From: Candidatus Altimarinota bacterium
GTDB taxonomy: Bacteria; Patescibacteriota; Gracilibacteria; BD1-5; UBA6164
Assembly: GCA_043730605.1 (NCBI GenBank)
Contig: JAYTJZ010000031.1
Span: 1 to 44,905, forward strand
Direction: 5' to 3'
DNA length: 44,905 nt
This document shows positions 18,883 through 22,350 of this stretch, piece after piece; within the stretch, counting starts at the first letter, position 1; the number at the start of each line of letters is the position of its first letter. A program made the translations under genes and the position numbers. The notes under the pieces were generated by a model that made no database searches, was not told the origin of the DNA, and worked only from the letters and a program-made list of their open reading frames with translations.

Positions 18883-21800
18883 ATGGTACAAGATCTTCGA
18901 AATAACTGATCTGAAAATCTAGAAACTACGCTTCTAGATATGGAAAATATCACGAGAAACCCTCTGACTCGAGAAAGTGCAGATACATTTATACGCTATC
19001 TTAATAGTTATCCTTCCCTGAACGAGGACTTCAGAACTCAAGAACTTATCGAGACTTTTACGAGACAACTCGAAAGTATCCAAGCTGCGTGGGCACAGGA
19101 AAAAATATCTGCTCTGAGTGAATTTCGTAATACCAGAAGTGCTTTTGCTGGAAATATCGTAAGTGCATGGACCCCCCCTTCAGAAGACCAGGAAGAAGAA
19201 ACGAATCTTGAAACTCACGCAACTCTTTCAAAATCTGAATATACAAAACTCGCTCAAGATGTGATTCAATTTACTCCCGAGAGTGAAATAAAAAATAATA
19301 GAAATATTTTTCTCTTTCAAAAATACTTTGCACAAACAGATCTCGGTTCTGAAATCAGTGTAGATGGAGTGGGTGGACCTCAAACTCTTGCAGCTATAAG
19401 TTACGATTCACGAGCTACTTCTATATTTTTGCGAGAACTTGGGTTCAAAGGACTCGATGGAGGAACACTTAATATCCGAAATACTTTTACTGCTGATATT
19501 ACTGCTGCGATTCAAAGCGCATTTTGAGTAAGGATAACGTCTCAAGTAGAAACTCCAGAAGTTGCAGTAACTCCAAGAGTCGAAGTAGCTCCTGCAGTAC
19601 AACGTACTCTTGCAGAAGAAATTATAGGAGTTCCTCTGACTGCAGAAAAGATACGAGCTTATCAAGTAGAACACAATATTGGAGCCGATGGAATACTTGG
19701 AAATGAAACGTATTTTGAAATGCGAGCTGGAGAACTTGTTGTGGGATTGACTGGAAATATAGAAAACCTTGAAACTCAAGAAGCTTTACTACAAGTATTA
19801 CAGTATTGAAATCCTGCAGGAATAAATTATGCTAAACTGCTTCCAGAAATAGGACATTTTCGAGAACAAGAAAAAAACAATGCTCAATATGCTGCTTTCT
19901 TTCGAAAACTTGATGCGATAATGCAAAATCCTGCATCAAATCCTCATACTCCAGCCTTAGAAGAACAAGCAACTCGTCCAAATAGTGCGGGAGGAAGTCT
20001 TTTATGAGATATTCCTAAATTAATTGAGGGAGAAATAACACCACAAGAATATTTGCAAAGAAATAAAGGTACATGAATCCTTATTGGTATTGCTGCCTTT
20101 ATATTTTTTGGAGATAAAATTCCTGGGATAGATAAAATTCCTGGGATGTGAAGTTGGTTTGGAAGAATCGCTTGGCTTTTTGGTGGGGCTGTGCTATGAG
20201 GAGGAGATTTACTTAAATATGGTCTCGAAAAAGCAGGAGAAGGAATAGGAGTTGGGAGGGAATGGCTTGTAGATCAAGCGAATCAAACTTGAAGTAGTCC
20301 TGAAGAAAGAATACGAGCTAGTAGAAATGCAGAAGGATCTCCACTACAAAGAATATTTCCAGAAGCTGATTTCTTCGATGCGGTACAAGCAAAATTTCGA
20401 GAAGACGAAACTCTTGGGTATATCAGAATATCCGATATCCCCTCTCTTATAGCATCTATCGAATCTGGTACAAATATTCCAGCTTATATCGAAAATCTTC
20501 GTATTAATGGGCAAGCTCTCACTAAAGAACAACTTATAGGATATCTTTCATCTCTCAAAAAAGCTGCAACATGAAAAGAAATAACCTATATTAGTGATTT
20601 ATACAGTATCGATGAAAATTATGGAACTCTAGGAAGTATAGCTCTTGGGACACTTGCAGTAACAGCTTTAATTGCTGGAGCACCAGTAATAGCAACTCTA
20701 TGAGCAGTATGAGCTGCAGGTGCATATATGGGAAATGATTATATCAATACATTAGTAGAATCTCTCACATCAAGTAAAGAAAATATAGAAATTTCAAATA
20801 TTATTGCAACTATATGAGATCCTGAACTTGCTGGACGCATTTCAACCCTCTACCAGAGTGATGCTTCTCTTGAAGAAAAAATACAACAACTTTGAATCTT
20901 TGCAAACGAAAATGCAAGCTATACAGAGTCTATTAAAAAGATTATCGATAATTTAATTGCTCTTGATACAAAATTTATAGAGATGATAGTAGAAAATCGT
21001 TCTATAAATCTTGTATTAGAAGAAACTATAAGACTTTCTGCCACAGAGATTAGTGGAATGAAAGGAGAAATCCAAAATAAGATTTCTTACATTGAAGCAC
21101 ATGTATGAGATGATACCCTCAAACAAGAACTCATACAAAGACTTTCTCTTGTAGCAGACAAAATAGAAGCCCTCCTTGCTACAAGAATCAGTGAAGAAGA
21201 AACTCAAAGAAGAGAAGATATACGTGCAAAAGTCTCTACTTTACAGTCAGATATCACTGCTCGTCGAGCAAATATCGATGCCCTTAATAGTGATAGAGAG
21301 CGTCTACTTTGAGAACGTTCAACTGCAACTGCTGAAAGAATCTGAGAAATAGAAAGGGAACTTTCTGAGATTCCAACAAAAATAGCTGCTTTAGAAGCTG
21401 AAATTTTAACTCTTGAATGAACTCTCTCGACAGCGAAACAAGAAGCAGCTGAAGTGTCTGTACTTGAGTGAAGAGTGTTGACAGAAAATATCTTAGCATA
21501 TCTTTCTGGAAGTCTCGAAAGCGCAATTCAAATACAATGAGCCATTGAAGCTATTACAAGAAATATAGAAAGTATTAAGAATTTTAAAAATCAAATTCAG
21601 ATATTAGAAGAAAGTATAGCTCTCGCTCCAACAAGTAGTGAAAAAAATGAAATATCAAGAAATATAGAAAATATCAATGCTCTCTATGCTCAACTTCAGA
21701 CAAGATTAGATCAAGATATTGCAGCTCGAACAAATATAGCTACTATTTCATGATTCGATTTTGAAAATGTAGAAAGTAAAGCTTCTCTTGAAAGACTCTT

Positions 21801-22350
21801 GAGTCTTACAGAAAATACTCAAATATGAGAAGTTTTTTCACTTACAAACGGTGATAATATAAATGAGGCTTATAAAAATGAACTTATTTCACAAATTTGA
21901 GTGATAGAAAATAGTTTTGTAAATCCTGAAAATAAAAATATTGAAAATTTAAAAAGTATTGTAGCAAAACGAGCACAACTTACCGCAATATATTGAGAAT
22001 TATTCTGAGAATCATACGATGAAGCTCGTTTCCAAGAAATTATAAATTCAAAAAAAACAAGTCTTTTACTTCTTCCTTATAACCAAATATTCCTTCGAGA
22101 AAATATAGGCGTAGAAAATGTAGTCAATAGGTATTTTTCCCAACTTAGTCCAGAAAATAAAAGTGTAATTCAAATAGAATTTTCAACACAAAATACTCTT
22201 TGAAATATCCTTACACTTCTTGAAGCTTTTTCACAAGCTCAAGCGTATAGACTAGCAGATAATACTGAAGTAGTAATCGATGAAACTACCAGAACTGAAT
22301 CCCGAGAGCTTTCTACTGTGTTACAATGAGAAATTAATTTTTTAAGTTAA
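18883..22350 (+). CDS. orphan giant protein A (about 1155 aa): two PG_binding_1-like repeats, two hydrophobic hairpins, long C-terminal coiled coil
   Basis: Frame 1 is open from ATG 18883 (alternative 18940) to TAA 22348-22350, with about 26 in-frame TGAs and no TAA/TAG. SVDGVGGPQTLAAI and IGADGILGNETYFEM resemble peptidoglycan-binding repeats. Hydrophobic ILIGIAAFIFFG / IAWLFGGAVLGGG and LGSIALGTLAVTALIAGAPVIATLGAVGAAGAY. Heptad-rich E/K/L/I region from about 20900. Confidence 0.75.

Follow-up and report, generated by a model that had tools for sequence, protein, structure and literature searches.

Protein A, encoded in the window (the whole 44,905-nt stretch of DNA that was analysed), combines a wall-binding type of module with hydrophobic hairpins and carries no export signal, a paradox raised in the original prediction that proved to be real and conserved across the protein A family. 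The protein itself is real, encoded in a genome where TGA stands for glycine, and, as judged from sequence searches, its family is orphan and lineage-restricted. The reading that we favour, tentatively and with somewhat less than even confidence, is that protein A reaches the envelope or a cell contact independently of Sec, docks on the wall and inserts into a membrane. Its gene heads a syntenic cluster (A-G) located between ftsX and queA.

Results

An intact reading frame when TGA is read as glycine

18883..22350, (+) strand: protein A gene, 1155 codons plus a TAA stop, TGA=Gly (code 25)

Reading of the ORF showed 26 in-frame TGA codons and a single terminal TAA. With translation table 11 the frame is broken into fragments and, thus, the protein A ORF is intact only if TGA is a sense codon. 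The alignment of DnaE, together with a Gly-like tRNA(UCA), indicate that the genome uses code 25, in which TGA encodes glycine. This assignment has consequences for how the protein is described: TGA codons occupy residues 398, 423, 439, 607 and 610 within the hydrophobic regions, so that their “Gly-rich” label rests on TGA being glycine. TGA accounts for 33-48% of the glycine codons in A-F versus 1-2% in EF-Tu and the S-layer-like protein, which suggests a modest expression, unlike that of an abundant surface structure. The GC content of the cluster is unremarkable (0.33-0.38). The database entry for the window's own protein A shows Trp at all 26 TGA positions, and most full-length matches of the family (28 proteins matched, 27 besides this entry) contain 2-5% Trp. 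Such Trp-for-TGA entries distort family-level analyses if used unchanged.

The 28 matches were found among 1.84 billion proteins and all of them fall within one bacterial family. Homologues are 1018-1230 aa long and occupy the same genomic position in relatives. Protein A identity between genomes is 25-40%, compared with 57-79% for FtsX and 56-69% for QueA, a fast divergence that fits an exposed or interface protein. In four genomes that carry no protein A homologue, the ftsX-queA slot is filled with unrelated large orphans.

A PG_binding_1-type module in protein A

19312..19410, (+) strand: degenerate PG-binding-like repeat 1, DGxxGxxT at 161, residues 144-176
19591..19737, (+) strand: PG_binding_1-type module, DGxxGxxT at 269, residues 237-285, three helices

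Two PG_binding_1-like repeats had been predicted in protein A. Both DGxxGxxT motifs were located where expected, from residue 161 (nt ∼19363) and from residue 269 (nt ∼19687), and the likeness held in profile searches for the second motif, while the first one stayed below threshold. Specifically, PG_binding_1 (PF01471, gathering cutoff of 23 bits) matched protein A at residues 251-277 (E 2.3e-5, 24.9 bits) and also matched 9 out of 10 homologues, with a best E of 1.6e-8. The match in protein A is partial, covering only model positions 28-54 of 57, that is, about half of the model, and the helix preceding it does not contain the first DG motif. It must also be considered marginal, because the same stretch scored 22.3 bits, under the cutoff, in a six-frame scan of the genome. 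Repeat 1 matched PG_binding_3 with an E of 0.0011 and 19.6 bits, under the 24.6 cutoff; it was poorly modelled by AlphaFold2 (pLDDT 33-48) and, by eye, a counterpart could be seen in some, but not all, of the 10 homologues aligned.

Conservation of the signature residues was analysed in 35 family members. Q261 is identical in all of them, D269, G270 and Y277 are kept in 31, T276 in 30 and E279 in 32, whereas G273 is kept in 27 and replaced by W in 6 more. This conservation argues for a retained, putative binding site, through which protein A may bind peptidoglycan. The genome's own strong PG_binding_1 proteins carry the same DGxxGxxT-type signature, and a protein with multiple true PG_binding_1 repeats (P0027) matched protein A residues 247-281 six times. 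When the family profile was compared with the PDB, PG_binding_1 modules came up first, although weakly (E ∼0.03), and 5 out of 10 matches were PG-binding modules of wall enzymes (gp144, 3bkh, YcbB, 5nm7 and 7kgn; E 0.027-0.59). The modules of the gp144 endolysin (N-terminal domain) and of the L,D-transpeptidase YcbB share with protein A the Q ... DGxxGxxT ... E signature and a three-helix arrangement, the latter as predicted for protein A by the core model, with helices at 237-247, 254-263 and 274-292 (pLDDT 88-97). Foldseek and VIA searches with the whole 345-residue core model listed no PG-binding structure, and retrieved no solved relative for its domains.

In contrast to the wall enzymes that bear PG_binding_1 modules, protein A is 1155 aa long, has neither a catalytic domain nor a signal peptide and places the module upstream of membrane hairpins. 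Searches against Pfam and NCBIfam gave no M23/LytM, CHAP or NlpC/P60 match in protein A at E up to 1.

Absence of a signal peptide throughout the family

The N-terminus of protein A is hydrophilic, as had been claimed, with a top Kyte-Doolittle 19-residue mean of -0.37 in the first 60 residues. A signal peptide had not been overlooked, since none of the 35 family members contains a hydrophobic segment within the first 70 residues. The six further cluster proteins, B-G, have hydrophilic N-termini as well. The same genome encodes ordinary secreted proteins with classical signal peptides, namely the S-layer-like protein, a PG_binding_1 protein on C28 and all three M23 proteins. In two further proteins of the genome PG_binding_1 scored high (47.9 and 56.6 bits), and neither has a signal peptide or a membrane segment, a situation that would fit a general non-Sec route better than repeated repurposing of the domain. 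The two ways out that had been proposed, unconventional export or delivery to the envelope of another cell, may apply to protein A; a cytoplasmic position of both soluble parts, with a repurposed three-helix module, is an equally simple possibility.

Regarding the possible route, Pfam, PHROG and NCBIfam profiles detected no export ATPase or known secretion component within cluster A-G. No match to the type III export gate FHIPEP (PF00771) came up in the genome, which is 97% complete; the control search was positive in 4 out of 14 reference genomes. The sole VirB4-like match in the genome was below threshold (19.3 bits), and a single FtsK-type ATPase is present.

Hydrophobic hairpins and helical regions

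18913..19152, (+) strand: N-terminal helical domain, residues 11-90
19768..20061, (+) strand: helical domain between the PG-binding module and hairpin 1, residues 296-393
20068..20217, (+) strand: hydrophobic hairpin 1, residues 396-445, two short Gly-zipper lobes and a basic loop
20293..20607, (+) strand: compact alpha/beta middle domain, residues 471-575, pLDDT 87-97 in the core model
20617..20733, (+) strand: hydrophobic region 2, residues 579-617, Gly/Ala-rich, central AGAP break
20743..22347, (+) strand: C-terminal all-helical region, residues 621-1155, ∼530 aa
21112..21537, (+) strand: long antiparallel helical hairpin, residues 744-812 and 817-885, 69 residues each

A Kyte-Doolittle scan found the two predicted hydrophobic regions of protein A at nt ∼20068-20217 and ∼20617-20733. 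Hairpin 1, whose first lobe spans residues 395-417 and whose second lobe extends to ∼445, contains 26% Gly, is present in all 10 homologues and could be aligned in all 35 family members. R428 is invariant (35/35), G439 is invariant in the 10-sequence alignment, the small-xxx-small spacing is conserved in the family, and residues 391-430 were modelled with a pLDDT of 83-90 in the core model. In all members the hydrophobic lobes are short (∼13-16 residues) and are joined by a loop of 10-17 residues. By eye, there are about 2-3 K+R on each flank of the hairpin and in the loop; because these counts are similar, the charges leave the orientation of hairpin 1 undecided. Region 2 contains 23% Ala and 16% Gly (KD maximum 2.12, pLDDT 38-54), and a comparable segment occurs in 4 out of 10 homologues. 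If the hydrophobic segments are paired as hairpins, both large soluble parts of protein A would be on the same side of the membrane.

In AlphaFold2 models, the N-terminal domain is all helical (pLDDT mostly 73-93 per 10-residue block, 69 at residues 81-90) and occurs in a subset of homologues. Residues 296-393 form six or seven helices (pLDDT 77-93). The alpha/beta middle domain, when alignments were examined by eye, aligned well only with the proteins of loci L011 and L015. A coiled coil of roughly 500 aa had been proposed to follow the hairpins. Protein A is indeed helical to its C-terminus (pLDDT 83-97 in most blocks, falling to 62-78 in some), but the region is not one continuous coiled coil: a crude heptad score was high at residues 651-800, moderate at 826-950 and low beyond 950. 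The long antiparallel helical hairpin (pLDDT 83-97) would measure ∼100 Å at 1.5 Å per residue and is followed by shorter helices and a few short strands. All 50 matches listed by VIA cover this hairpin or end within it (Z 9.3-11), including IpaB (Z 10.5, rmsd 10.3 Å) and colicin Ia (Z 10.2, 88 residues). The IpaB and colicin Ia matches involve just a hairpin of generic helical type and do not rise above the noise expected for helical folds. The suggested likeness to secreted membrane-inserting effectors is limited to the architecture.

Protein A heads a conserved cluster of orphan genes

17806..18795, (-) strand: ftsX, divergent neighbour, permease-like division protein (NF038347, PF18075)
22355..24670, (+) strand: protein B, 771-aa orphan, one central hydrophobic segment, no hydrophobic N-terminus
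24680..27205, (+) strand: protein C, 841-aa orphan, Gly-rich hydrophobic block near residues 580-700
27255..27974, (+) strand: protein D, 239 aa, 18% Gly, three hydrophobic segments, charged His/Lys C-terminal tail
27978..30449, (+) strand: protein E, 823-aa orphan, hydrophobic segments near residues 166-184 and 566-612
30518..30940, (-) strand: 140-aa ORF in the 633-nt gap between E and F, with the look of a multi-pass membrane protein by eye
31083..31754, (+) strand: protein F, 223 aa, 12% Gly, basic C-terminal tail
31830..33356, (+) strand: protein G, 508-aa acidic orphan
33414..34469, (+) strand: queA, conserved right-hand flank (PF02547, E 8.7e-131)

In several genera, cluster A-G is found at one and the same place in the chromosome, with housekeeping genes on either side. 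The ftsX product matched NF038347 (FtsX_Gpos) over its full length with an E of 4.3e-22, under the curated cutoff, and PF18075 with an E of 1.5e-4; its true start is probably near 18708, because homologues align from residue 30. ftsX adjoins the protein A gene divergently in the window and in 8 out of 9 related loci, while in locus L017 the protein A gene lies away from ftsX.

Only 4 nt separate the protein A and B genes. Protein B matched no Pfam, PHROG or NCBIfam family; relatives encode a large ORF (636-1374 aa) at this position, with a BLAST-detectable homologue in two loci. Protein C has BLASTP homologues in six related loci, and its sole PHROG match (E 0.009), to phrog_342 “internal virion protein with endolysin domain”, falls on the Gly-rich stretch. 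Directly after the protein E gene, a terminator-like GC hairpin followed by a T-run was noticed by eye.

Discussion

The reading of protein A as a wall-side envelope or cell-contact protein would imply the following course of events. Protein A would leave the cytoplasm via a route that needs no signal peptide, and its conserved PG_binding_1-type module would dock it on peptidoglycan. The hairpin or hairpins would then enter a membrane from the wall side, either that of the own cell or that of a host cell, so that both soluble parts would most likely be on the wall side, with the long helical hairpin serving as a spacer or interaction arm. Protein A might act together with B-G as an envelope or cell-contact complex. 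The same-side topology, the binding to peptidoglycan, the Sec-independent export and any partnership with B-G are what we infer.

Several known systems share parts of this architecture. Inc proteins, IpaB and colicin-type pore formers also lack a signal peptide and present a bilobed hydrophobic hairpin flanked by long helices, of the kind predicted for protein A; chlamydial Inc proteins are described by such a hairpin, which keeps their two ends on the same side of the membrane that they target (PMC3048545). Unlike them, protein A is far larger, carries a PG-binding module, shows no sequence relation to them and comes from a genome in which no type III gate was found. The likeness to SepJ, a septal-junction membrane protein of filamentous cyanobacteria, is architectural: its N-terminal coiled coil is proposed to extend into the periplasm, where it would contact peptidoglycan at the cell-cell junction (PMC12096826, PMC5623728), and its membrane crossing is itself described as unconventional (PMC12096826). 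SepJ differs in having a multi-pass permease domain and no PG_binding_1 module, and in belonging to a different phylum.

An alternative that we regard as possible, though on the unlikely side, is that protein A is a scaffold on the cytoplasmic face, with its hairpins dipping into or spanning the cell's own membrane from inside and both soluble parts in the cytoplasm. A-G would then form a membrane-attached coiled-coil skeleton, for instance at the division site or the attachment pole, and the PG_binding_1-like module would have been repurposed for a protein partner or a cytoplasmic wall precursor. This is the simplest way to read 35 family members without signal peptides next to six further neighbours with hydrophilic N-termini, and it agrees with the lack of secretion machinery within the cluster. 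The short lobes would suit a monotopic or re-entrant anchor, long helical or coiled-coil regions diverge fast even when unexposed, and a structural protein of low abundance may well show such a high share of TGA. However, one would hardly expect the PG-binding signature to be so strongly conserved in a protein that cannot get to the ancestral ligand, the signal-less state of the other strong PG_binding_1 proteins of the genome hints at a non-Sec route, and protein A matched no cytoskeletal family in Pfam or NCBIfam. A more far-reaching possibility, which we consider unlikely, is that the source bacterium is an epibiont and that A-G is an apparatus for cell contact, independent of Sec and of a kind not described before. 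The large signal-less proteins A, B, C and E would leave the cell where it touches its host, perhaps by way of pores formed by D and F, small Gly-rich membrane proteins whose charged tails resemble those of holins, and would cross into the host envelope. There, A would dock on host peptidoglycan with its conserved module, and its Gly-zipper hairpins would enter the membrane of the host from the side of the wall, so as to form or hold in place a conduit for feeding.

The position next to ftsX raises the question of whether protein A is a wall factor coupled to FtsEX, with the FtsX extracellular domain gripping its hairpin as in EnvC, PcsB and CwlO, and ATP hydrolysis by FtsE moving the PG-binding end during division. 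EnvC is reported as an exported protein with a LytM domain (mature residues 35-419 were used) whose coiled-coil hairpin binds two FtsX periplasmic domains (PMC7668044), and PcsB is described as an FtsEX partner and coiled-coil wall-hydrolase activator (10.1101/2025.05.23.655736). Protein A resembles these proteins in its ftsX-adjacent gene, in an antiparallel helix pair of 69 residues that has the form of the EnvC hairpin and a similar length, and in bearing a wall-directed module. In contrast to them, it lacks a signal peptide and any LytM/M23, CHAP or NlpC/P60 domain, carries hydrophobic hairpins and is transcribed divergently from ftsX, and the long hairpin fold is generic. In addition, the genome already contains a canonical candidate (C49), a 671-aa protein with a signal peptide, ∼370 helix-former-rich residues and an M23 domain. 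Because the slot lies between ftsX and queA even in genomes where its proteins bear no relation to A, the adjacency looks like a conserved position and not a partnership; the separation of both genes in L017 also speaks against coupling, which we consider very unlikely. We give still less credence to A-G being a domesticated or remnant phage module derived from ejection, internal-virion or tape-measure proteins. Phage tape-measure and internal-virion proteins have very long helices, Gly-rich membrane segments and wall-directed domains, lack signal peptides and act in the envelope of another cell, an architecture like that of protein A; the phrog_342 match of protein C points in the same direction, and proteins of both kinds appeared, without significance, among the viral fold matches. 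Nevertheless, none of the seven cluster proteins had a significant PHROG match, protein A had none at E up to 0.01, and the best viral fold match reached an E of 0.2 with TM ≤0.17. Unlike phage modules, A-G is chromosomal and syntenic between housekeeping genes, with ordinary GC content and no capsid, terminase, integrase or tail gene nearby.

Returning to the wall-side reading, relatives of the source bacterium are described as predatory or host-dependent organisms with elaborate surfaces (PMC8080830, PMC11452946), and the source bacterium itself is presumably episymbiotic, as judged from this literature on its lineage. Bacteria of the TGA=Gly lineage are tiny and mostly uncultured, and most of the candidate genes with which they may attach to and exploit other cells are unannotated. 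A-G provides a concrete, conserved candidate, a seven-gene orphan cluster in which protein A joins a putative wall-binding module, hairpins and a 100-Å arm. If the cell-contact apparatus existed, the rapid turnover of the ftsX-queA slot would record an arms race with hosts. If the cytoplasmic reading were true, protein A would represent an unusual cytoplasmic use of a PG_binding_1-type module. If protein A acts on the wall side, TGA=Gly bacteria would possess a non-Sec export or delivery route, on which the PG-binding fragment and the hairpin of protein A would offer a handle.

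Genetic code and reading frame of protein A

Read with the standard bacterial code, positions 18883-22350 give only fragments, and their in-frame translation meets 27 stops, that is, 26 TGA codons and the final TAA. When TGA is read as sense, an ORF of 1155 codons is obtained for protein A and, across the window, stop-to-stop frames of at least 100 codons, summed over the six frames, rise from 0.87 to 2.31 window lengths. Since DnaE, Mfd, EF-Tu, QueA and FtsX are encoded in the window, its DNA is cellular. Within the GPGR-x-SAAGS motif of DnaE, one TGA occupies a position that is Gly in the solved polymerase 3e0d. 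The 1.24-Mb genome of the window also carries a tRNA with anticodon UCA besides a normal tRNA-Trp(CCA). The acceptor stem of this tRNA(UCA) starts in the same way as in tRNA-Gly(UCC) of this genome, and both have a discriminator U, unlike tRNA-Trp; we take the start of the stem and the discriminator U to be glycine identity elements. The TGA at the Gly site of DnaE and the Gly-like tRNA(UCA) together indicate, at the sequence level, that TGA is read as Gly in this genome, which corresponds to NCBI table 25, used by Gracilibacteria and SR1.

The public database copy of A has Trp at all 26 TGA positions. Most full-length database homologues of A contain 2-5% Trp, suggesting that they were mistranslated likewise, and the Gly of the DGxxG motif appears as G in 27 and as W in 6 of the 35 sequences of the family; we take these six W's to be TGA codons read as Trp.

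TGA made up 1-2% of Gly codons in EF-Tu (15896-17095) and in an S-layer-like protein (40277-43729), 9-27% in other genes of the window, 33-48% in the genes of proteins A to F and 16% in that of protein G. These differences would fit a bias in the use of the reassigned codon that is linked to expression. Among the RNA data sets listed, none contained the gene of A. Contigs of four DNA runs covered 15800-35000 only in short pieces, with a depth of about 1-7 on the cluster, and the EF-Tu and tRNA bins of these runs came mostly from other organisms, which makes strain-level selection unreadable in them.

Protein A combines a peptidoglycan-binding module, hydrophobic hairpins and a helical tail

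The original prediction had described A as carrying two motifs resembling PG_binding_1 repeats, a hydrophilic N-terminus and two hydrophobic regions. Translation and a motif check placed both DGxxGxxT motifs where predicted (residues 161 and 269), a hydrophobicity scan confirmed the hydrophilic N-terminus, and both hydrophobic regions were found at the expected positions (residues 396-445, hereafter hairpin 1, and 579-617). Profile searches upheld the second motif alone: Pfam PG_binding_1 matched residues 251-277 with E 2.3e-5 and 24.9 bits (cutoff 23), covering positions 28-54 of the 57-position model, while the first motif stayed below threshold, the PG_binding_3 match at residues 144-176 reaching 19.6 bits against a cutoff of 24.6. 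Of the predicted coiled coil of roughly 500 aa, the helical character held throughout past residue 620, but strong heptads were limited to residues ~651-800, with a moderate signal up to ~950.

An AlphaFold2 model of the whole protein, built from a 35-sequence alignment, had a mean pLDDT of 77.7 and a pTM of 0.42. Residues 11-90, 231-430, 471-570 and 621-1155 were modelled confidently, pLDDT dropped to 52-56 at 431-450, and the poorly modelled parts were residues 92-230, where the first motif lies, 449-470, and 577-615, which belong to the second hydrophobic region. In the tail, helices 744-812 and 817-885 form an antiparallel pair of 69+69 residues. A separate model of residues 231-575 was better (pLDDT 86.1, pTM 0.67) and showed three helices corresponding to the PG-binding module. 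After them come a helical domain, then the hydrophobic hairpin, modelled at pLDDT 83-90 for 391-430, and a compact domain of the alpha/beta type. We trust one structural inference, namely that these hydrophobic elements form hairpins, in which two short lobes flank a loop of 10-17 residues, with Gly-zipper spacing and a conserved Arg. Judged by eye, the charges around hairpin 1 leave positive-inside reasoning ambiguous.

With the whole model, Foldseek against the PDB was uninformative, giving alpha-solenoids throughout (best E 1.1e-3, TM about 0.1), and the 50 matches listed by VIA wide all covered or ended in the hairpin at residues 773-862 with Z values of 9.3-11, below the noise level of this search for helical folds (Z about 13). 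For the core model of residues 231-575, the best values were E 0.23 with Foldseek against the PDB, Z 5.8 with VIA wide and E 0.2 with Foldseek against viral structures; among the matches listed there was no PG-binding structure, lysozyme, transglycosylase, colicin or Bcl-2-type fold. These searches found no solved relative for the core and, for the tail, nothing beyond matches to a generic hairpin.

A divergent family restricted mainly to close relatives

A word-seeded homologue search with A returned the window's own database entry alone. Exhaustive HMMER comparison of residues 1-640 with 1.84 billion proteins identified 28 at E<=0.001, 23 of them at E<=1e-10, mostly 1000-1265 aa long. Six-frame searches of a first sample of relatives located a homologue in 9 of 24 other same-family genomes and in none of 16 genomes from two sister families; a family-wide search located one in 18 of 95 other genomes (7 of 29 genera). 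In a class-wide sample, A matched 7 of 20 genomes of the family and 1 of 280 outside it, this sole match consisting of 35 residues (23 bits) of the PG-binding motif only.

Ten correctly translated homologues were 15-29% identical to A. Their alignment left M1, Q261, D269, G273, R428 and G439 invariant, and Q261 and R428 were still invariant with 35 sequences. PF01471 was matched by 9 of the 10 homologues (best E 1.6e-8). When the family profile was compared with the PDB, the top matches were PG-binding modules (gp144, 3bkh, YcbB), albeit weak (E about 0.03); five of the ten matches were modules of this kind and the others were coiled coils. Hairpin 1 was present in all family members, in two sequence flavours, and a second Gly/Ala-rich region in 4 of the 10 homologues. 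None of the 35 members had a hydrophobic segment within the first 70 residues.

The PG_binding_1 module is already known. The A family, its hairpin signature and the cluster described below are absent from Pfam, NCBIfam and PHROGs, and neither family nor cluster is described in the papers listed by searches on cell-surface, predatory and PG-binding traits of Absconditabacteria, Gracilibacteria and Patescibacteria; supplements to such papers may name homologues. By kind, we file A as a wall-binding, membrane-anchored helical protein.

Protein A opens a gene cluster between ftsX and queA

The gene of A lies in a cluster (18883-33356), which is given here together with its flanks:

ftsX, divergent left neighbour of A
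18883-22350 (+), protein A, 1155 aa
Protein B, 771 aa, same strand as A, 4-nt gap after A
Protein C, 841 aa, same strand as A, 9-nt gap after B
Protein D, 239 aa, 18% Gly, same strand as A, 49-nt gap after C
Protein E, 823 aa, same strand as A, 3-nt gap after D
30450-31082, E-F gap of 633 nt, with an opposite-strand 140-aa ORF without any TGA
Proteins F (223 aa) and G (508 aa), then queA, downstream of the E-F gap

By eye, the 140-aa ORF looks like a multi-pass membrane protein, and just 3′ of E a GC-rich inverted repeat runs into a T-run. Because of this opposite-strand ORF and the repeat with its T-run, the cluster is probably split into two transcription units. Proteins B to G belong to no Pfam, PHROG or NCBIfam family, the lone exception among A to G being a PHROG match of a Gly-rich stretch of C at E 0.009. 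BLASTP of A against all 4289 ORFs of the genome translated with code 25 returned A itself alone, and hhalign among the families of A, B, C, D and E gave probabilities of at most 3.1%; therefore, the genes of the cluster are not recognizable as duplicates of one another.

The order from ftsX through A to G and on to queA was mostly retained in nine related loci, one being inverted relative to its flanks and another (L017) having no flanks; in two related loci, an additional ORF (about 660 aa) preceded A. For the same genome pairs, identity was 57-79% for FtsX, 56-69% for QueA and 25-40% for A, the latter over partial alignments. Five genomes that lack an A homologue were also inspected (G003, G008, G017, G019 and G023). 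In the first four, 3-6 large orphan ORFs still lay next to ftsX (loci L046-L048 and L050), for example ORFs of 761, 727, 713 and 649 aa as far as queA in G003; queA ended the run of ORFs in three of the four, the contig of G019 stopping before. The ftsX-queA synteny was absent from G023. Several of these slot ORFs have, by eye, central Gly-rich hydrophobic stretches, and none of those tested matched PG_binding_1. The first slot ORF of G008 (1253 aa) gave a weak SH3_3 match (E 0.001, below cutoff), possibly another wall-binding module. Since genomes without A fill the slot with orphan genes, the ftsX-queA interval is, as judged from gene content, a fast-turnover slot.

Elsewhere in the window, we observed the following genes:

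40277-43729 (-), protein of 1150 aa, rich in Thr, Val and Asp, with a clear signal peptide, one TGA only and no Pfam family
39527-40192 (-), IS200-like Y1 transposase (PF01797, E 9.3e-9), adjoining the surface-protein gene
14061-14495 (-), 145-aa ORF with a sub-threshold T4SS_pilin match (PF18895, 24.2 bits against 26.6)
10200-13541 (-), FecR-domain protein (429 aa) with a CHASE2-adenylate/guanylate cyclase (681 aa) immediately downstream

The first of these is probably an abundant surface (S-layer-like) protein, and the cyclase and the FecR-domain protein may be a signalling pair.

Wall proteins with and without signal peptides

Classical signal peptides were found in this genome in the S-layer-like protein, in a PG_binding_1 protein on contig C28 and in 3 of 3 M23 proteins. 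Because secreted proteins of the same genome have classical ones, the missing signal peptide of A is not an annotation slip. The pairing of a wall-directed domain with a missing signal peptide also recurs in this genome:

C56:6622-9648 (-), locus L057, protein of about 978 aa whose strong PG_binding_1 domain scores 47.9 bits, with long helices rich in Ala and Glu, a second DGxxGxxT near residue 621 and a Cys/Pro-rich C-terminus, having neither a signal peptide nor any hydrophobic segment
C106:3459-4682 (-), locus L051, 407-aa protein lacking a signal peptide, in which PG_binding_1 (56.6 bits) occurs as two repeats
C52:7212-8111 (+) and C52:35522-38071 (+), CHAP-domain proteins of 299 and 849 aa, neither with a hydrophobic N-terminus

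C106 is a contig of 6.9 kb in which a polymerase-like ORF, recognized by eye, adjoins the 407-aa gene; the contig may be phage-derived and the protein endolysin-like. An L,D-transpeptidase site at its C-terminus, considered by eye, had no support in Pfam. The CHAP-domain proteins are predicted to be further wall-active proteins without a signal peptide.

Possible modes of action of protein A

If the hydrophobic elements are hairpins, the N- and C-terminal masses of A would share one side of the membrane. The conserved PG_binding_1 signature argues that this shared side is where peptidoglycan is, and the family-wide absence of a signal peptide would then mean that A gets there by a Sec-independent route. 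A would dock on the wall and insert in the membrane, of its own envelope or of a host's, with B to G as partners. Nearly as likely is that all of A is kept on the cytoplasmic face, a reading that has parsimony on its side as well as the fact that no export machine was found. For an effector-like function, which the original prediction had raised as speculative, an FHIPEP-type export gate was not found in the genome, which has one sub-threshold VirB4-like match (contig C40) and one FtsK.

The position of A next to ftsX brings to mind the EnvC class, which, according to PMC7668044, is exported, has an antiparallel coiled-coil hairpin held by two FtsX periplasmic domains and carries a LytM domain. 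A shares the antiparallel hairpin but has neither the export signal nor the LytM domain, and an EnvC-like candidate that combines a signal peptide with an M23 domain is already present in the genome, so that a coupling of A to FtsEX seems improbable. We give marginally less weight still to a phage descent of the cluster, given its stable chromosomal synteny, the lack of a PHROG match for A and the lack of a significant viral fold match. Part of the probability goes to none of the readings named here. Our tentative preference is, thus, that A is a wall-docking, membrane-inserting envelope or contact protein, acting on its own or a host envelope and working with B to G. In a bolder reading, A to G together would be a new contact apparatus.
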